Below, one piece after another: positions 12,280-20,332 of a stretch of 64,000 bases of DNA (within the stretch, counting starts at the first letter, position 1; each line of letters opens with the position of its first letter). Source of the stretch: Planctomycetota bacterium. GTDB taxonomy: Bacteria; Planctomycetota; PLA2; JAEUHO01. The position numbers and the translations under genes are program-made. The stretch is from positions 64,001 to 128,000 of the forward strand of contig CBDCWP010000031.1 in assembly GCA_965223505.1 (NCBI GenBank). The letters run 5' to 3'. The notes below the pieces were generated by a model. It was not told the origin of the DNA, made no database searches, and was given only the letters and a program-made list of their open reading frames with translations.

Positions 12280-13320
12280 CTATGCCTTCGTCTTGGTGAA
12301 AGCCGCCTCTTCGACGAGATCGACGAACGCCTCGGGTTCGACGCGTGCGTTCGCGGCGCCGACACCCAGCTCTTCGATGAGGTAGCGCGTGCCGACCGCG
12401 TTGTCGGTCGCAGGACCGGCGATGACGTCGATCGCGAGATCGTGCTCCTGCAGCCACTTGACGCCGCCCCAAGCCGCGACGAGGTCGTTGGCCGTGAGCA
12501 CGTGCGCCTGGATGAGGGAGCGGAACTCGGCGTCGCGCAGGATCGAGTCGACGCCGTACTGCCCGATGATGCCGTCGCCCATCTCGGCGACGATCACGTC
12601 GAGCTCGACGTCGGCTTGCGACGGCATGGAGCGCAGCACGCGCTTGGCGACGGGCGCGACGTCGTCGAGCCCGGCGGTCGTGGGATAGCCGCACTCGAGG
12701 AACGTCAGCACCGCGGCCGCGCCGTGGTCGACCATGTTCAGCGGATCGCGTACGGCGGCGATGCCGGTCAGCTTCGCGCCGCCGCACGCATAGCCGCGCT
12801 GCGACAGGCGCGAGATGATCTCGCAAGCCGCGACGGTCTTGCCGGAGTTCATGCAGGTCCCGGAGACGACGACGACCGGCGGGATGGGCGTGTCCGGGTC
12901 CGGTTCCGGCACGGCCGCGTCGGCGATGTTCAACCCCTTGCCTTCGTGCGTGACCATGCCGAGCACCTCGACGCGCAGCGGATGGCCGACGTCGCGGTTC
13001 TCGCTGACGGCTTCGCCGAGCACGCCGCCGAGGTTGAGCAGGTTGATGGTGTCGCCGGCCTTCAACGATTGCGGCACGCGCCCCACGAAGCCACGCAGCG
13101 CGTCGCGGCGACCCAGCGCGCCGACGAGAACGTCGCCCTTGCCCACGTGCGCCATCCGGCCGGTGTTGAGCTCCATCAGGTCGTAGACGCGCTTCTCTTC
13201 GAGCGCGCGCACGACGAGCACCTGTCCGCTGCGGCAGTCGATGCGGCGCGTGAACGTGACTTCGGGACCGAGGTCGAGCGTGTGCACGACACTGGCGATC
13301 TTGTGCGGGCGGATCTTCAC
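12280..13320 (-). CDS. DUF1611-like P-loop protein
   Basis: GTG start overlapping the argG stop (GTGA); GALG.R.AL.G, SGTCMNSGKT P-loop, KLTG...RD...M.D.GA, EMGDGI. Confidence 0.75.
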   Translation of the reverse strand: MKIRPHKIASVVHTLDLGPEVTFTRRIDCRSGQVLVVRALEEKRVYDLMELNTGRMAHVGKGDVLVGALGRRDALRGFVGRVPQSLKAGDTINLLNLGGVLGEAVSENRDVGHPLRVEVLGMVTHEGKGLNIADAAVPEPDPDTPIPPVVVVSGTCMNSGKTVAACEIISRLSQRGYACGGAKLTGIAAVRDPLNMVDHGAAAVLTFLECGYPTTAGLDDVAPVAKRVLRSMPSQADVELDVIVAEMGDGIIGQYGVDSILRDAEFRSLIQAHVLTANDLVAAWGGVKWLQEHDLAIDVIAGPATDNAVGTRYLIEELGVGAANARVEPEAFVDLVEEAAFTKTKA

Positions 13321-14528
13321 GACGTTCCCTTCGCGCGTTCGGCCGCGCGCCGGGCGAGCGCCGACGGAATGCCGTAGAGCCGGGCGAAGCCCGCGGCCTC
13401 CTCTCCCGTCCAGCCGGTGGCCTCCTCGCCGTAGACGGCGATCTCGGGATCCATGAGCGAGTGCGGCGAGCGCGCGCCGACGATGGTGCACGACCCGCGG
13501 TGCAGCTTCACGCGTACGTCGCCCGTCACACGTTCGTTGGCGCTGTCGAGGAACGCCTCGAGATCGCGCATGACCGGGTCGTAGAACTGCGCTTCGTGCA
13601 TGAGATTGCCGTAGAAGCTGCCGAGCGTCTCGCGCCAGTAGCTCTGCCAGCGTGTCTGCACGAGCTTCTCGAGGTCGCGATGCGCCTGGATGAGGATGAG
13701 CGGGCCGGGCGCTTCGAAGGCGAGCCGTCCCTTGACGCCGAGGATGGTGTCGCCGAGGTGGATGCCGCGCCCGACGCCGTGGGGGCGAGCGCGCTCGTTC
13801 AAGGCCGCGACGATGGCGACGCCGTCCATGGCGACGCCGTCGAGCGAGATCGGCAGGCCTTGCTCGAAGCCGATGACGAGTTCCTCGGGCTCGGCATCGG
13901 CGGACTCCGGCGCTTCGGTCATCGTGTAGGCGCGGTCGGGCGGAACCTGCCAGGTGTCGTGCGTCTCCTTGCCGCCGATGGTGGTGCCGAAGAGACCCTC
14001 GTTGATGGAGTACTCGACGGTCTTCGCATCGATGTCGAAGCCGCGCTCGGCCAGCCAGTCGCTCTCCTGCTGCCGGGACCAGTTGAGGTCGCGGATGGGG
14101 GCGTGGATGGTGAGCTTCGGATCGAGCGCGCGAATGGCGACGTCGAAGCGGATCTGATCGTTGCCGGCGCGGGTGGAGCCGTGGGCGACGGCATCGGCGC
14201 CGACGTCGTGGGCGACCTGGACGACGGCTTCGGCCTGGGCGGTGCGCTCGGCGCCGACGGAGACGGGGTAGACGCCGCCGCGCAGACAGTTGCCCTTGAT
14301 GAGGTAGGCGACGAAGCGGTCGTAGACGTCTTGCTTGGCGTCGACGACGCGGTGCTCGGACACGCCGAGGGCTTTGGCGCGGTCGGCGATGTCGGCGAGC
14401 TCGCGGTCGGAGAAGCCGCCGGTGTCGACGGTGACGGTGACGATGTCGGCGCCGGTCTGTTCGCGCAGGTAGATCGCGCAGAAGGTGGTGTCGAGGCCAC
14501 CGGAGAATGCGAGGACGATCTTCGACAC
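13317..14528 (-). CDS. argG: Argininosuccinate synthase
   Basis: KIVLAFSGGLDT PP-loop, AHGST..GNDQIRFD, G+G...GDTILG.KGR..FEAP. Confidence 0.96.
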   Translation of the reverse strand: MSKIVLAFSGGLDTTFCAIYLREQTGADIVTVTVDTGGFSDRELADIADRAKALGVSEHRVVDAKQDVYDRFVAYLIKGNCLRGGVYPVSVGAERTAQAEAVVQVAHDVGADAVAHGSTRAGNDQIRFDVAIRALDPKLTIHAPIRDLNWSRQQESDWLAERGFDIDAKTVEYSINEGLFGTTIGGKETHDTWQVPPDRAYTMTEAPESADAEPEELVIGFEQGLPISLDGVAMDGVAIVAALNERARPHGVGRGIHLGDTILGVKGRLAFEAPGPLILIQAHRDLEKLVQTRWQSYWRETLGSFYGNLMHEAQFYDPVMRDLEAFLDSANERVTGDVRVKLHRGSCTIVGARSPHSLMDPEIAVYGEEATGWTGEEAAGFARLYGIPSALARRAAERAKGTS

Positions 14529-14631
14529 GGGGGGGTGGGCTCCGAATTGCCCGGAAACGGGGGCGAACCCGAGATGGTAGTCCGGGGGCCGAATTGGCGC
14601 ACGGAAATGGGGCGTGCTGACAGATTCGCCG

Positions 14632-14891
14632 TACGCCGGCACTCCGGCTTCGCCTGCGTGCCTTGCTACCCCCCAAACCCGGTTTGGGGCAACCCCGAAT
14701 TGAGGACCGGGGCGATTCGACTCCAGCCTTCATCACCCGCGCGTAGGGACTCGAACCCCTCGACTTCCGCGCTTTGCGCTCCAGCCAAGGGAACCCCATC
14801 GCTTCTTCAGGGGGGAACTGTGTAGTTCCCCCCTACGCCGGCACTCCGGCTCCGCCTACGTGCCTTGCTACCCCCCAAACCCGGTTTGGGG
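14632..14891. repeat. Two 58-bp direct repeats (14632-14689 and 14834-14891) with internal palindromes; part of a tRNA-linked tandem repeat
   Basis: TACGCCGGCACTCCGGCT(T/C)CGCCT(G/A)CGTGCCTTGCTACCCCCCAAACCCGGTTTGGGG, 56/58 identical. Confidence 0.92.
14738..14759 (-). repeat. 22-bp duplicate of the tRNA-Arg 3' part (T-arm plus acceptor strand)
   Basis: CGCGCGTAGGGACTCGAACCCC identical to 14955-14976. Confidence 0.9.
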
Positions 14892-14912
14892 TTCACCACC
14901 GAATTGTGAAGA

Positions 14913-14940
14913 CGGAGGCCGGCTCGCTCTCCGGCCTCCG
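14913..14940 (-). terminator. Hairpin downstream of tRNA-Arg, possible intrinsic terminator
   Basis: 10-bp stem CGGAGGCCGG/CCGGCCTCCG with 8-nt loop, followed on the minus strand by TCTTCACAATT (weak U-tract). Confidence 0.55.
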
Positions 14941-14949
14941 CCACGAATT

Positions 14950-15026
14950 TGGTACGCGCGTAGGGACTCGAACCCCAAACCTCCTGATCCGTAGTCAGGT
15001 GCTCTATCCAATTGAGCTACGCGCGC
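14950..15026 (-). tRNA. tRNA-Arg (anticodon ACG)
   Basis: GCGCGCGTAGCTCAATTGGATAGAGCACCTGACTACGGATCAGGAGGTTTGGGGTTCGAGTCCCTACGCGCGTACCA; 77-nt cloverleaf with encoded CCA. Confidence 0.98.
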
Positions 15027-15243
15027 ACGTGAACTCAGCGAGGGCGGACCTTACTGCCGCCCCACGAACCCGGCAAGGACGGCCCCGACCGCTCCACCGA
15101 CCCCCCGGCAACGTCCCGCAATCAACCCCGGCTGGTAGAGGCACCCCGCCGACGCCATGCCGTTCCTTTCGGCCTCTCGCCGGCGGCGAAATGGATTCCA
15201 GCGGATTCGGCCATTGCTGTTGTTCAGCCCGTACTACTCGATC

Positions 15244-16065
15244 ATGAGAACTGCATTTGTCTGCTACGACCGCTCGCAGCGCCACACGGTGGAAGCGCTG
15301 GCGAAAGACATCAGGTCCCTCGGTTGGGACCCCTGGTTCGACCGGGAAATCAAGCCGTCCGACAACTGGTGGCCACGGATCCTCGAGAAGAGTAGGACGT
15401 GCGACGTCTTCATCTATGCCTTCTCCGCCGAGTCGGCGTCATCCGAAGCCTGCGACGTCGAGTCGAGATGGGCAGCCGACTGCGACCGGATCCTCCTGCC
15501 GGTTCAACTCGAGTCGGGGTCGATCTCCGGACTGCCGGCCTTCGCCGCCAGTAGACAGGCCATCAAGTACGAGCCGGACTCGAGGACCTCGCTCAAGCAA
15601 CTGGAAGATGCGCTCGCCGGCATCCCACCGACGCCGCCGCAACCCGAGCCGCTTCCGCCCGCGCCGGATCCACCGGGCTTCCTCGTGAACAGCATCAACG
15701 AGCTCGCAGGCAGCTCGACACCCGATCCGAAAGAGCAGCAAGGTCTGGTTGACAGCGCTGCCAAGCGCAACTGGCGTGAGGAGGAGATCGATGATGCGAT
15801 CACGGCACTTCGCCGGTTACGGGGCAACCCCGTCGTCATCGGAACGGTGCGAGACAAGATCGATCGAGTTCTCGCCGACCTCACCGAACGGCGGTCCCCG
15901 GCCGATGCCGTCGAGTTTCAGGAGGTCACGCTACCGGATCCGCCCGAGCTCCCCGATGATGACGCACTCGTCGTCGTCGAGGAGAAGAAAGAGACGAGCG
16001 CGCTCGAGGTCATCGGCGGGATCGTCGTCGTCCTCTTCATCCTCGGCATGATGCAGAGTTGCTAA
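15244..16065 (+). CDS. TIR-domain protein with Pro-rich linker, helical domain and C-terminal TM anchor
   Basis: AFVCYDR...WDPWFDREI....WW..I....CDVFIYAFS.ES..SEAC.VE TIR_2 pattern; terminal hydrophobic helix. Confidence 0.85.
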   Translation: MRTAFVCYDRSQRHTVEALAKDIRSLGWDPWFDREIKPSDNWWPRILEKSRTCDVFIYAFSAESASSEACDVESRWAADCDRILLPVQLESGSISGLPAFAASRQAIKYEPDSRTSLKQLEDALAGIPPTPPQPEPLPPAPDPPGFLVNSINELAGSSTPDPKEQQGLVDSAAKRNWREEEIDDAITALRRLRGNPVVIGTVRDKIDRVLADLTERRSPADAVEFQEVTLPDPPELPDDDALVVVEEKKETSALEVIGGIVVVLFILGMMQSC

Positions 16066-17267
16066 CGGGACAAACGTCGCAGGACGTCCGCCGGGATCTT
16101 CGGGCGGCCCGCCGCGTCGCCCTTCGAGAGCTCGAGCACGTACTTCGCCCGGAAGAGCATCTCGTCCACCATCGGATTGTTCGTCATCGTCGTCACCTGG
16201 CTCGGCAGCTTGCGCTCGATGCTGATCGAGATCCGCACCACCAGGCCGGTCTCGGGGTTCACGTAGAACGTCCCAACGATCTGCTTGACGGCCAGTCGAA
16301 TCGCGGCGGCCACGGTCATGCCGGTCGCCGGGTCCTGAATGAGCGAGTCGTCGAACGTCGTCCTGAATCCGTCGCAGCGAACGTCGCCGATCAGGCTCGG
16401 GTTGTCGGCCTCGACGCCGTCGCCGGACTCGATCGCCGCGGCGAGGTCCGTGAAGCCCAGAATGCCCTTCAGCTCGCGCGCGAAGCCGGCGACGGGGGGC
16501 GCGCTCGTGCCCTCCCACGTGTGGCGTTGGATGACCCGCTCGACCTTGCGGTACACGTCCAGCTTGCCGGCTTCGGTCTCGATCGATGCGCTCGTCACAC
16601 CGTCGCGCGTGATCCACGCTTCGAAGGGCCCATCCGGACCGCTGCCGAAAGGGTTCATGCCGCCGGGGAACGGCGAGATCCGCGTCACGCGCGCGTCGAT
16701 CGCGATGTCGTCCAACGCCGCGGTCTTGCGAAGCGCGGCAACGAGCTTCTGCTTGTGCTCCGGCGCCGGTCGCGGAGCGTCCGGCGTGGCTTCAGCCGAC
16801 CCGTCGTCCTTCTTGGGGTCCTGCTGGACGCCCTTGAAGCGTGCCCACGCGTCGTCGAGGATGGCGAGCATGCGTTTGGGCGCCAATCCGACGGTGACCT
16901 CACCCTTGCCCTCGAACAGCAGGTTGCCGTCGTTGTCGATGAGCAGGAAGTTGCTGGCGACGGACGTGCGCTTGTCCGCGAGCTTCCAGGCGTCCTTTCC
17001 CGTGACGCTGTCGTCGATGTCGATGGCGACGGCGCGCTCGTTGATCTGCTTGACGACCGAGGCATCCGTGAACAGCCCACCGGGCTTCATCATCTCCTTG
17101 CCGGGTCAGGTCGCCGGTCCGGTGATGAAGACGAGCAGCAGCTTGCCGTCGGCCTTTGCTTGCGCCACGGCTTCGGGAACGTCCCGGCGCCACTTGACCT
17201 CGTCGGCTGCGTAGGCGGCGGTTCCAGCGAGCAGGATCAACATCGACAGGCAAGCGGCGCGCTTCAT
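16062..17267 (-). CDS. Secreted thioredoxin-fold protein with in-frame UGA (17106-17108), candidate selenoprotein
   Basis: Signal peptide, VKW.RD..EA.A.AKADGKLLLVFITGPAT-UGA-PGKEMM...LFTD.SV.K.INE.AVAIDID, continuing in frame into ORF 16062-17093; SD GGGAGA before ATG 17267. Confidence 0.75.
17069..17089 (-). promoter_or_regulatory. Candidate bacterial SECIS hairpin
   Basis: UGAA-GCCC-GGU-GGGC-UG-UUCA; apical loop begins with G, 24 nt after the UGA. Confidence 0.55.
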
Positions 17268-17419
17268 GGTGTTCTCCCGGACAGCTGCATGCACCGTCCT
17301 AGACGCATTTGACACGCCCGCTGTTGGTCCTGCCGCGCGGAGGTCGGCAGAAAGTCCCGGCTGTGCGGCGCCTCGTCCGACCCTGTACCCTCTGGGTCGC
17401 TCTGGCGGAGAGGTGCTCG

Positions 17420-20332
17420 ATGCGGGGAATCAGCCGTTGCTGCATGGTGCTGGGGGTGCTGCTCGCCGGCGCCGCGGCGCCCGCTCCGGTCCGTGCGGAC
17501 GAGCCGCCCGCCGACGCCGACGCGTGGCACGCCGCGGTCGCGCACGCCGCGGCCGCGTTCGACCGGGCGGCGCTCACCGGCCTGGCCCGTGCACCGCGCG
17601 GCGACGCCTGGATCGCGACCGACCGGATGGTCGCCCGCGGCTTCGTGCAGATGGCGGATCACTTCGCCTCGCAGGTGGCGGCGCCCGATGCGGAGGCGCT
17701 GCGTCGCTACTTCCGTGGCGAACCCGAACCCCGACGAGTCGAGCGCGCCGTGCTCGACCAGATCCGCCAGCGGCTCGAGGGCGGCGACGCGTTGGGGGCC
17801 GCGCGTGCGGCTGCGAAGCACGGCGACGGGTTGCCGGATCTCCTTCGCTATCGCTTCCGTTTCATCGAAGCGTGGGCCTGGCGCTTCGCGGGCGAGCTCG
17901 ACGCGGCGCGCAGCGCCTTCGAGGCGGCGGAGACGATTGCGACGCGTCTGGGATGGCTCCAGGCGATGCTGGACAGCGTGACGGGACTGTTCGAGACCGT
18001 CGCGTACGCCGATCGTGCGGCCGCCGAAGCGGCGCTGGTGCGCCGCGGGCAAACCGCGGCGAAGCTCGGGGAGCCTGTGGTGGTTCTCGAGACGCAGGTT
18101 TGGCGCGGCGGCGTCGAGGCGGAGAGCGGACGGATCACGGCAGGCGTTCAGCGCCTTCGAGCCGCGCTCGCCGAGCTGACCGTGCACCAGAAGGACGAGT
18201 ACACGGGCGAGGCGCACGCGACGCTGGCGCAAGCGCTCGTGATGGGGGGGCAGTACGGTCTCGCCTTGAATCACGGCGCGGAGGCCGCGCGGTGCTTCGA
18301 GCGGGCCGAGCACGTCGAGGGGGCGCTGTACGCGCGCGCATCGATCATCGCGGCGTACTCCGATATCGGCCTCGACGAGTCCGTCGCTCGGCTTTGCAAG
18401 GTCCAGGTGGCGCAGGCGCAGGGCGTCGACGCGCAGCTGCTCGCGGACGCGCGCCTTGCGTGGGCGATCTCCGCTGCCCGACTGGGCGATGCGGACCTGG
18501 CGGCGGCGAAATTCGCGGAAGCGCTGGCGTACTTCGACGCACACGACGACCATCGCCAGTCCGCCATCCTCCGCATCAACCGGGCGAGCGAGCTCCACAT
18601 GCCGATTGAGGACTGGGAGGCCGCGGCACGGGATCTCGCCCACGTGCTGGAGAGCGAGGCGATGTCGCGTCGGCTCCAGGGTTATGCACATCTCTTCCTC
18701 GGAGACGTTCACGCCGCGCGCGGCGATGACGAAGCGTCGGGTGACGCGTACCAACGCGCGGAACGGGCGGCGACGGAGACCGGCGATCGCACGCTCAAAG
18801 CGATCGCGCTGGCGGGACTCAGCGAGCGGGCGTTCGATCGCGACGCGACCGAGGCGCTGGATCTCGCCGTTCGCGCGAGTGCCGAGATCCTCGCGGAAGC
18901 CGATCATCTCGCCGACACGGAGGCGGTTTCGTTTCTCGGGCAGGCGGCACCGGTTCGCGCCGCAGCCGCGCGGCTGCGCGCGGCGTTCGCGATCGGTGAC
19001 CCCGCCATCGCGTTCGACACCATCGAAGCCGTGCGTGCGGTTGCCCTGCTGGACAGTCTCGGCGGTGTCGGACAGGTCTATCGCGCCGCCCTGCCGGACG
19101 AGCTCCGCATTGCGCTCGAGCAAGCGCAGCGGCGACTCCGCGATGCGGAAGCCGCTCACGACGCGGAGCTCGCAGGCGACGGGAACTTGAAGCGGCTCGC
19201 GCGCGTCCGCGCGGAGCGGCAGACCGCTCGAACGGTCTTGACGGAGACGCAATCCCGCCTGCAGAGGGAGGCGGCTCGCATTGCGCGCGTGTCTCGCCCT
19301 GCGTTCGTCTCCCACGACGCGCTCCGGGCATGGCTCGCACCGCACGAGGTCTTCGTTCACTACGCCGTCGTCGACGCGTCGCTGCACGCCGTCGTCGTCG
19401 ATCGAGCGGGTGTGCGGTTGCTATCGATCGGCGCCGCCGCCGCCGCGCTCGCGTCGGTCTCGGTGCTCGACACGTACCGGCGTCCACGTCGGGCAGGTGA
19501 GAACGAGCGCAAGCCCGCGACCGTCTTCCGGTCCCTCGCGAACGAGTTGCTCGGCCCGCTCGAACTTGCGCCGACCGTCACCAACGTCATCGTTTCGCCG
19601 TCGGCAGAGATCGCGAATCTCCCGTGGCCCAAGATCGGACGGCACGCCGACGTGGCGTTGACGCTCGCTCCCTCCGCGTCGGTGCTGATGCTGTTGTCGA
19701 ACGACCCCGTGCGCGTTACACGCAAGCGCCTCGTGCTCGCGGATCCCGACTACACCGGCAGGAGCAGGCTCTCACCGCTGCCTCGGTCCGGTGACGAGGG
19801 CCGTGCCGTTGCTCGCGAGACCGACGAGCTGCGATTGGGGGCCGAGGCGTCGGAGTCGACGCTGCGCGACGTGCTTCACGGCCGTGACGAGGCGTGGTCG
19901 GTGGTGCACTTCGCGTGCCACGGCATTGTGAACCGCGAGTGGCCGGCCCTCTCGTCGTTGGCCCTTGCGCAGGATGCCGGGCACGACGGGTTTCTGACCG
20001 GCGCCGAGATCCTGGCGTTGCCGCTCGACGCCGATCTGGTCGTTCTGTCGGCATGCGACACGGGCACGATGACCGCGGTCGCGGGCGAAGGCTATCTGGG
20101 CGTTCCGCGGGCGCTCCTCGCGGCGGGCGCGAGCCGGATCCTCGCCAATCTGTGGCGCGTCGACGACCGGGCCGGCATGGAGCTCATGCGACTCTTCTAC
20201 GCTGCGCTCGAGGCCGGCGCGATGCCGATCGAAGCGCTGCGAAGCGCGCAGGAGGAGCTACCCGCGATCGATGCGAAGTGGGCGGACCCGTACTACTGGG
20301 CGGGATGGGTGTGCTGGGGGTCTCCGCGCTGA
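17420..20332 (+). CDS. CHAT (caspase/HetF-like) protease with TPR-like helical region and apparent signal peptide
   Basis: VHFACHG and LVVLSACDT catalytic dyad, LW.VDD, PYYWAGW C-terminal motif; SD GGAGAGG. Confidence 0.9.
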   Translation: MRGISRCCMVLGVLLAGAAAPAPVRADEPPADADAWHAAVAHAAAAFDRAALTGLARAPRGDAWIATDRMVARGFVQMADHFASQVAAPDAEALRRYFRGEPEPRRVERAVLDQIRQRLEGGDALGAARAAAKHGDGLPDLLRYRFRFIEAWAWRFAGELDAARSAFEAAETIATRLGWLQAMLDSVTGLFETVAYADRAAAEAALVRRGQTAAKLGEPVVVLETQVWRGGVEAESGRITAGVQRLRAALAELTVHQKDEYTGEAHATLAQALVMGGQYGLALNHGAEAARCFERAEHVEGALYARASIIAAYSDIGLDESVARLCKVQVAQAQGVDAQLLADARLAWAISAARLGDADLAAAKFAEALAYFDAHDDHRQSAILRINRASELHMPIEDWEAAARDLAHVLESEAMSRRLQGYAHLFLGDVHAARGDDEASGDAYQRAERAATETGDRTLKAIALAGLSERAFDRDATEALDLAVRASAEILAEADHLADTEAVSFLGQAAPVRAAAARLRAAFAIGDPAIAFDTIEAVRAVALLDSLGGVGQVYRAALPDELRIALEQAQRRLRDAEAAHDAELAGDGNLKRLARVRAERQTARTVLTETQSRLQREAARIARVSRPAFVSHDALRAWLAPHEVFVHYAVVDASLHAVVVDRAGVRLLSIGAAAAALASVSVLDTYRRPRRAGENERKPATVFRSLANELLGPLELAPTVTNVIVSPSAEIANLPWPKIGRHADVALTLAPSASVLMLLSNDPVRVTRKRLVLADPDYTGRSRLSPLPRSGDEGRAVARETDELRLGAEASESTLRDVLHGRDEAWSVVHFACHGIVNREWPALSSLALAQDAGHDGFLTGAEILALPLDADLVVLSACDTGTMTAVAGEGYLGVPRALLAAGASRILANLWRVDDRAGMELMRLFYAALEAGAMPIEALRSAQEELPAIDAKWADPYYWAGWVCWGSPR

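Follow-up and report, generated by a model that had tools for sequence, protein, structure and literature searches.

A candidate exported selenoprotein with a rebuilt thioredoxin-like active site and a LolA-like domain in a Planctomycetota bacterium

Does a TGA codon that separates two neighbouring open reading frames (ORFs) in a Planctomycetota genome end a gene, or does it encode selenocysteine (Sec)? The question is posed by a 64,000-nucleotide stretch of DNA (the window; GenBank assembly GCA_965223505.1, contig CBDCWP010000031.1, positions 64,001 to 128,000 of the forward strand), in which a first-pass annotation, made without database searches, had proposed a thioredoxin-like selenoprotein and had named as checks the reads at the TGA, homologs with TGA or Cys at the same column, and the Sec machinery of the genome. 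All positions below are window coordinates, and minus-strand features are marked (-). Taken as a whole, the best explanation is very probably that 16062-17267 (-) is a single gene encoding a 401-residue exported selenoprotein; its core, that the locus is a genuine Sec-encoding gene, appears from comparative evidence at least as secure, and Sec insertion itself at codon 54 we infer from the same comparisons.

The TGA codon and its conservation

The TGA at 17106-17108 closes the minus-strand ORF 17106..17315; the ORF 16062..17093 follows 12 nucleotides (nt) later without a change of frame. Read through from the ATG at 17267, they give a product of 401 residues in which the TGA is codon 54, the surrounding peptide is ...KLLLVFITGPAT-U-PGKEMMKPGGLFTDASVVKQINERAVAIDID..., and translation stops at the TAG 16062-16064 (-). 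The first-pass annotation had described two ORFs in one frame with one TGA between them, a 401-residue product and a gene that gene callers would split; the ORF coordinates agree, the peptide that it quoted was recovered exactly, and the two ORFs are best taken as one gene. The GC content of third codon positions (GC3) supports this frame and no other, being 0.83 over the 53 codons that precede the TGA and 0.91 over those that follow. Logan contigs from three runs, which represent two samples of one study and possibly the window's own source, cover 17106-17108 with zero differing letters, so that assemblies from two samples show TGA at the place where the reads were to be checked.

A six-frame search of 41 related genomes recovered one full-length relative, in genome G026, which belongs to the same order and another family. 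This ortholog shares 33-34% identity with the window protein over residues 5-364 and contains one TGA, located at the same column (...RLLMVFITGPKT-U-PGKALLRPGGLFTKAEV... in G026, ...KLLLVFITGPAT-U-PGKEMMKPGGLFTDASV... in the window). Its wider context is ...LLMVFITGPKT-U-PGKALLRPGGLFT..., and the motif common to both proteins is FITGPxT-U-PGK. The first Met of the G026 gene after the TGA is 40 residues away and those 40 residues are conserved, so the conserved stretch lies in no ATG-started ORF. The suggested search for homologs with a conserved TGA has therefore yielded one ortholog verified at the DNA level.

The profile of both proteins was searched with HMMER against 1.84 billion representatives and gave 71 matches. 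These include N-terminal fragments ending exactly before the Sec column (P0009, P0012 and the independent P0028, ...FITGPET, and P0053, ...FITGPKD), as well as C-terminal fragments beginning just past it (P0002, and P0006, start MRPGGLFT...). The exact family is rare, being present in two of 40 genomes of the class and two of 401 sampled genomes of the phylum (the source genome is in both counts). The sole public record found by a scan of genome contigs was JAJFFH010000058.1, a G026-like contig of a Planctomycetota metagenome-assembled genome. When metagenome contigs were scanned with the Sec column back-translated as Cys, 146 pattern matches contained no relative, and a word-index protein search with the full window protein found the window's own truncated ORF only. 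A degenerate DNA pattern with TGA (F/I-T-G-P-x-x-U-P-G-K) matched 14 metagenome stretches, all of which were rejected as chance matches without ORF continuity.

The source genome contains all four genes of the Sec machinery that the first-pass annotation proposed to look for. tRNA-Sec (selC) scored 69.2 bits against a cut-off of 47 and was called SeC(tca) by ARAGORN, and selA (507 bits), selB (336 bits) and selD (338 bits) are all over their curated cut-offs. The selD gene (C8:38315-39232 of the source genome) itself encodes a selenoprotein, with an in-frame TGA in GG-U-AAK. An alternative genetic code in which TGA has a sense meaning was rejected: TGA terminates ordinary ORFs in this genome, and selA and selB have reading frames without an in-frame stop, hence TGA is no general sense codon here. 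In terms of the features used for bacterial selenoproteins in Zhang et al. 2005 (PMC1088965), the locus combines this machinery with an in-frame TGA that is conserved in at least two different sequences (the window gene and the G026 ortholog, joined by 51 of 51 sequences of a sister family described below) and with Cys in homologs at the aligned column.

Active site and domain architecture

The active site was compared in a MAFFT L-INS-i alignment of the N-terminal domains of three Sec forms, two fragments and 34 Thioredoxin_7-like homologs, in which seven homologs longer than 450 residues were entered as the matched segment only and U was kept as an unknown symbol, which is therefore unable to attract Cys. 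The Sec column contains Cys in 34 of 34 CxxC-bearing homologs and U in each of the three Sec forms, and the sister family's Cys forms P0133 and P0154 read W-C-P-G-K. At the column of the second Cys, three positions further, Cys is found in 33 of the 34 homologs and Ala in one, and Lys in the three Sec forms. The first-pass annotation had placed the UGA at the first Cys of a thioredoxin-like pattern and had seen no resolving Cys in U-P-G-K, and the alignment agrees on both counts. The cis-Pro column is occupied by Pro in all 32 homologs with a residue there and by Ser, Ser and Glu in the Sec forms, and the column after it by Thr or Ser in the homologs and by Asn in the three Sec forms. Arg100 is invariant among the Sec forms, in a column that varies in the CxxC homologs (R in 6, K in 6, G in 5, D in 4 and others), and the mature N-terminal domain of the window protein has zero Cys residues. 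As judged from this alignment, Sec is at the nucleophilic first-Cys position, and the remaining site is rebuilt as U-P-G-K ... R-x5-[S/E]-N. The CxxC dithiol and cis-Pro loop of the Thioredoxin_7/DsbH families are thus represented by U-P-G-K and by S-N at the Pro site.

Two orthologs, P0003 (L022:1495-2586) and P0006, have a Cys (G-S/A-C-T) in the loop that follows the final strand of the thioredoxin domain; the window protein reads G-E-V-T there. By thioredoxin-fold topology this loop Cys, which is not conserved, should adjoin the active site and could be a resolving Cys in those orthologs.

An AlphaFold2 model of residues 20-160, based on 34 aligned sequences, has a predicted local distance difference test score (pLDDT) of 86 and adopts a thioredoxin fold. 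Sec (model residue 35) is located between strand 24-30 and helix 36-39, that is, at the N-terminus of helix 1. The best Foldseek matches of this domain were the Thioredox_DsbH protein 7tkv, 3f9u, ERp19, DsbH and AGR2, followed by thioredoxins. NCBIfam returned nothing useful for the window protein, and P0003 had no match to Thioredoxin_7 or Thioredox_DsbH of Pfam at E<=0.1. The N-termini of orthologs and homologs are of the same signal-peptide kind as that of the window protein.

The C-terminal part had been called an unrecognised beta-rich domain in the first-pass annotation; it is indeed a fused domain, and it can now be assigned a fold. The AlphaFold2 model of residues 165-401 reached a pLDDT of 92.5 and a predicted template modelling (TM) score of 0.89, and Foldseek matched it best to LprF, LprG, LppX, LolA and RseB; 63 chains matched at E<=1e-3, the TM scores being about 0.5. 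The nearest clusters in the ESM Atlas were LppX_LprAFG (score 0.92), which we treat as a lead only. Because of these matches, the modelled C-terminal domain is assigned to the lipid-carrier fold of the LolA superfamily, a predicted half-barrel of the kind that holds acyl chains. The open beta-barrel with a helical plug is present in the model, whereas sequence models of the family do not match: no Pfam family was found at E<=1 in the window protein or at E<=0.1 in ten stand-alone relatives (P0008, P0010, P0011, P0014-P0019 and P0021). Secreted proteins of about 250-300 residues that consist of this domain by itself also exist, and two such genes (L048, L049) have no thioredoxin-like gene within about 1.5 kb. 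A global alignment of all profile matches misaligned the proteins that consist of the C-terminal domain only and was not used for folding.

The downstream hairpin and a sister family

Immediately 3' of the UGA lies a hairpin that resembles the elements called selenocysteine insertion sequences (SECIS). Its upper stem spans 17086-17074, the GGU loop begins 24 nt past the UGA, and a short lower stem follows below an internal loop; the G-initiated loop at 24 nt was found as the first-pass annotation had described it, including an alternative drawing of the lower stem as UGAA/UUCA with a UG bulge. The locus therefore has, just 3' of the UGA, a stem-loop whose small apical loop includes G, but the element is weak. 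It is encoded by the rarer codons CCC-GGT-GGG (Pro-Gly-Gly), GGT and GGG accounting for 6% and 18% of Gly codons (four genes). At the same place the G026 ortholog has GCGGCCC-GGC-GGGCUGU with a 7-pair stem, in which CCC and GGG are kept. An Rfam search of 14000-18500 at E<=10 found no SECIS-like family, only the tRNA at 14953-15026 and chance matches.

Since SECIS-like structures become commoner as GC content rises, as stated in the deep-Sep paper (PMC12013277), the context of the hairpin was sought within the same organism. A scan of the source genome looked for in-frame TGA codons that are open on either side and fall in a U-[GPA]-[GPA]-x motif following a hydrophobic strand. This gave 13 rows including the window gene; six others are thioredoxin-fold candidates by inspection (Table 1) and six look like chance. 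Three of the six candidates have GC stems with GGUCU, GGU or GUU loops that start 19-23 nt past the UGA as counted for the hairpin class below, or 20-23 nt as folded, and the window GGU loop at 24 nt fits this pattern. A hairpin class with at least 5 contiguous pairs and a loop of 3-5 nt starting with GGU or GUU, 18-27 nt past the TGA, which is a post hoc definition set after the hairpins of the other candidates were known, follows 781 of 106,414 TGAs of the genome (0.73%), 0.72% of random positions and four of the seven candidates.

A weak match in genome G035, which reads GMW-U-PGK, revealed a sister family, and the 302-residue protein was used as a query against 401 Planctomycetota genomes. 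At E<=1e-45 the search identified 51 near-full-length matches, which come from 46 genomes and each have exactly one TGA. Loci of the family include L027:1081-1986(-) and L056-L085. Thirty loci were fetched, with W-U-P-G-K in 29 and W-U-P-A-K in one. The family motif is AAPxC-x7-W-U-P-[GA]-K, with a conserved Cys 8 residues N-terminal of Sec, and E-N-T is found at the place of cis-Pro. One further variant, in G275 (L087, C15:96000-99000, +), has W-U-K-G-T instead of W-U-P-G-K.

The SECIS element of the sister family, GGACAGGA-GUU-UCCUGUCC, has a stem of 8-9 base pairs and a loop 25 nt past the UGA. Among 26 distinct sequences, 92.7% of the cells are paired and four of nine pairs change on both sides. 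The 16 compensatory cells compare with 4.8 in shuffles, 0 of 500 shuffles reached the observed score, and slid controls were 23-53% paired. selA was detected (E<=1e-40) in 45 of the 46 genomes with a sister TGA vs 290 of 401 overall, an enrichment that is indicative only, related genomes not being independent.

In the protein database, the sister family is represented by at least 250 clusters at E<=1e-10. Among the 120 clusters listed, 118 cover only 72-80% of the query, corresponding to the part past the TGA, and are named "hypothetical protein" or "thioredoxin family protein"; the remaining two, with 91% coverage, are Cys forms with W-C-P-G-K (five sequences inspected). No fitting NCBIfam model exists for the family, the best being NF041383 with 14.8 bits against a cut-off of 275, and the source genome has no member at E<=1e-5.

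Both families carry U-P-G-K at one and the same column, have lost cis-Pro (S-N in the window protein, E-N-T in the sister family), show the R-x5-N spacing and have a signal peptide; in both, a hairpin with a G[GU]U triloop follows the UGA at 24-25 nt. In contrast to the window family, the sister family is common (46 of 401 genomes), has rare Cys forms and a much longer, covarying SECIS stem, and carries Trp before Sec and a 7-residue insertion with the conserved Cys (C-x7-U). Its identity to the whole window protein is about 28%, and its own C-terminal half is unlike that of the window protein.

Possible function, alternatives and known families

The window protein resembles Thioredoxin_7 (PF13899) and Thioredox_DsbH (PF03190) proteins in fold, export and the N-terminal pattern W..d...A...Ak..gKpllv.ft, which is followed by the active site and F.D..V....N..fV.v.vD. 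It differs in having Sec for the first Cys, Lys for the second and Ser-Asn for cis-Pro-Thr, in scoring below the Pfam thresholds, and in its fusion to a LolA/LppX-like domain. The C-terminal domain shares with LolA, LppX, LprG and LprF (PF07161, LppX_LprAFG) an N-terminal helix, a curved antiparallel sheet and internal helices, at Foldseek E values of 1e-6 to 1e-4 and TM scores of about 0.5. Unlike these proteins it shows only 11-15% identity to them and no Pfam match, and it is an internal domain behind a redox domain rather than a lipoprotein of its own; ligand binding is predicted from the fold.

Among known selenoproteins, the Trx7/PDZ protein NF041199 is likewise Thioredoxin_7-based, exported and multi-domain. 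Its Sec, however, is at the second position (CxxU) and its partner is PDZ, whereas the window protein has UxxK and a LolA-like partner. The window protein (P0001) is not a member, having no match to NF041199 at E<=1 and no PDZ match, and P0004 scored 14.6 bits against a cut-off of 300. A separate gene of G026 (L086, C48:157300-160300, -) is Thioredoxin_7-like, with C-V-P-U-KDC and a long C-terminal part, and looks like the Trx7/PDZ CxxU type. The tables of the 2026 review of prokaryotic selenoproteomes (PMC13188914) contain UxxK only in the selenophosphate synthetase row and UPG only in the PrdC row, as UPGQ, and the only Thioredoxin_7-based selenoprotein in that review's tables and in the 2022 review (PMC9312934) is the pfam13899 PDZ protein with CxxU. 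Pfam and NCBIfam contain no model for the window family or for the sister family, and the 2026 review table has no row for either. Among the papers listed by a literature search, none joins a selenoprotein with LppX, LolA, LprG, Thioredoxin_7 or DsbH.

In the mechanism that we propose, SelB-GTP-Sec-tRNA(Sec) would be recruited by the GC hairpin with its GGU triloop 24 nt downstream, so that Sec is inserted and translation does not terminate. The product would be exported by the Sec pathway and cut by signal peptidase I after AYA(20). The C-terminal domain would hold a hydrophobic ligand, probably a lipid, and the lone selenolate may then attack an oxidised group on it, either a hydroperoxide or else a disulfide or sulfenate, in the manner of a glutathione peroxidase (GPx) or 1-Cys peroxiredoxin (Prx). 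An outside thiol could resolve the resulting selenenic acid or selenenylsulfide; candidates for this partner are the several exported TlpA-like proteins with UxxC that the genome encodes. The attack on a hydrophobic ligand is suggested by the lone Sec, the flanking Lys, Arg and Asn, and the joined lipid-carrier fold.

GPx and 1-Cys Prx enzymes are likewise built on the thioredoxin fold, carry one Sec or Cys at the N-terminus of helix 1 and lack a resolving Cys close by. Their activating polar residues are Asn, Gln and Trp in GPx and Arg and Thr in Prx, and GPx4 acts on lipid hydroperoxides. They are mechanistic analogues only: neither the Pfam GSHPx nor the AhpC-TSA model matches at E<=1, and the likeness is by analogy, their catalytic residues not being aligned with the window protein. 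The attack of a lone Sec on an oxidised hydrophobic ligand, with recycling by an outside thiol, is offered as a tentative proposal, and its most specific form, a periplasmic GPx4 counterpart that arose independently of glutathione peroxidases and reduces hydroperoxides of envelope lipids, would be a rather unlikely guess on present analogies.

A reading of about the same, likewise tentative, weight is that the same Sec gene has another job. The lone selenol may form transient mixed selenenylsulfides with Cys residues of envelope proteins, as a monothiol isomerase or chaperone in the CxxS manner of AGR2, or it may bind a soft metal or carry Se or S; the LolA-like domain would then dock to lipoproteins or to the membrane instead of presenting a lipid substrate. 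AGR2, whose CxxS site contains a single Cys, is among the structural neighbours of the N-terminal domain together with AGR3, ERp19 and DsbH, and some LolA-fold proteins, such as RseB and GerS, also serve as protein-binding regulators. The cis-Pro of thioredoxin-fold oxidoreductases helps to hold the substrate peptide, and its loss argues against ordinary protein-disulfide chemistry; also against this reading stand the nearest folds of the C-terminal domain, which are the lipid carriers LprF, LprG and LppX.

A more distant alternative is that the UGA is passed without Sec, either by near-cognate read-through (Trp, Cys or Arg) or by re-initiation at the ATG 17093, which would produce a cytoplasmic 343-residue protein without a signal peptide. 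An ATG pair 4 codons past the TGA would permit re-initiation, and the SECIS-like hairpin is short and statistically unexceptional in energy. However, the ortholog has no Met across the 40 conserved residues past its TGA, the C-terminal domain also has stand-alone relatives that are secreted, every homolog aligned has its catalytic Cys at the column, the genome has the full Sec machinery, and selA accompanies the sister TGA as counted above. Together these points make passage without Sec improbable.

That the TGA is a plain stop, with no full-length protein made because a nonsense mutation turned a former CxxC gene into a pseudogene or because of an assembly or read error, accords with the gene caller's reading, the low depth and the rarity of the family, but is largely refuted, and least probable of all, given the same TGA and motif in a 33%-identity ortholog of another family, the conservation of both flanks as protein with high GC3 on either side, the agreement of three assemblies from two samples and the sister TGA at the same column in all 51 near-full-length matches.

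The interpretation of the locus as a Sec-encoding gene for an exported lipid-carrier fusion has to be weighed against several observations. The window hairpin is short, with 5 contiguous pairs, and the 72-nt stretch folds with an energy that is usual for its composition (z = 0.38; 1.03 for the ortholog). The hairpin of selD in the same genome differs and falls outside the GGU/GUU-triloop class, so that no single SECIS rule applies and the SECIS elements are heterogeneous within one genome. The ortholog loop is GGC, not GGU, and the two sequences contain no compensatory change; no covariation is demonstrable for the window hairpin because there are two sequences only and the stem lies within the conserved peptide P-G-G-L. 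The covariance model R1, built from 29 SECIS elements of the sister family, matched the window TGA site with 13.3 bits (E ~0.01) and the ortholog with 12.1 bits, in both cases with the hairpin deleted; the matches run only through the shared coding string UGACCNGGCAAG and therefore add no independent support for it.

Further points concern the protein and its family. Assembly depth at the TGA is just ~4-5, and the DNA-verified members of the exact family number two. None of the 71 profile matches spans both the Sec column and the C-terminal domain, nor did a two-domain Cys-form ortholog appear among them, and the fragments P0028 and P0053 reveal the end of an ORF at the column but not the identity of its stop codon. 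The Pfam scores of the N-terminal domain (Thioredox_DsbH 19.5 bits, Thioredoxin_7 17.5 bits) are both below the gathering threshold of 27. Finally, the gene neighbourhoods of the window gene and the ortholog have no correspondence, and the functional part of the interpretation draws on the domain architecture alone.

Table 1. Features of the putative selenoprotein gene and related TGA candidates of the source genome.
Feature	Position	Strand	Basis
Whole selenoprotein coding sequence, 401 codons and stop TAG at 16062-16064	16062..17267	-	read-through translation, GC3
Shine-Dalgarno-like GGGAG, 6 nt 5' of ATG 17265-17267 (putative function)	17274..17278	-	seen in sequence
Predicted signal peptide, residues 1-20 (MKRAACLSMLILLAGTAAYA), cleavage site AYA/A	17208..17267	-	basic n-region, hydrophobic core, AxA
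Thioredoxin_7/DsbH-like domain, residues 22-145	16833..17204	-	sub-threshold Pfam, AlphaFold2, Foldseek
Putative Sec codon 54, TGA, first-Cys column of CxxC	17106..17108	-	ortholog, homolog alignment, assemblies
Active-site motif U-P-G-K, Lys at resolving-Cys column	17097..17108	-	homolog alignment
SECIS-like hairpin: lower stem UGA/UCA, upper stem AGCCC/GGGCU, triloop GGU (17079-17081)	17069..17092	-	folding, genome scan
Arg100, R-x5-N with Asn106	16968..16970	-	alignment of three Sec forms
Ser105-Asn106 replacing cis-Pro-Thr/Ser	16950..16955	-	homolog alignment
Low-complexity linker, residues 146-164 (QQDPKKDDGSAEATPDAPR...)	16776..16832	-	sequence; pLDDT drops to 49-58 at end of N-domain model
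C-terminal LolA/LppX/LprG-like domain, residues 165-401	16065..16775	-	AlphaFold2, Foldseek, ESM Atlas
Thioredoxin-fold TGA candidates, source genome (motifs UAGC, UGPC, UAPC with Thioredoxin_7-like N-terminus, UPAC, UGPC, UPGC)	C5(+)23891, C10(-)44334, C21(+)354008, C34(+)163976, C43(+)78912, C44(-)131451 (strand-oriented)		

The gene is flanked by a convergent TIR_2-domain protein (15157-16065, +), the end of which touches its stop, and by a divergent 1007-residue CHAT-domain protein (17309-20332, +); argininosuccinate synthase (13317-14642, -) and a tRNA (14953-15026, -) lie beyond. No functional link of these neighbours to the selenoprotein is evident. Around the ortholog, inspection of ORF translations without a family search suggested an aconitase-like gene, an EamA-like transporter and a HEAT-repeat-like protein.

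Selenoproteins of the thioredoxin fold form a known kind, of which further families are regularly reported. What is new here is the rebuilt single-Sec site, the fusion to a lipid carrier and a widespread sister family that has not been filed. The single-selenol site (UxxK, no cis-Pro) is no mere replacement of Cys by Sec, which points to chemistry other than dithiol exchange, and the fusion to a lipid-carrier fold suggests a hydrophobic substrate, yielding the concrete hypothesis of a lipid-redox enzyme of the envelope. The window family also led to a large sister family in the Planctomycetota, which has a textbook covarying SECIS element and is present in public records almost solely as truncated pieces. 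Because gene callers split or truncate them, both families are worth adding to selenoprotein annotation models and, if the rather unlikely reading as an envelope counterpart of GPx4 is true, they would define a new class of single-selenol thioredoxin-fold enzymes.

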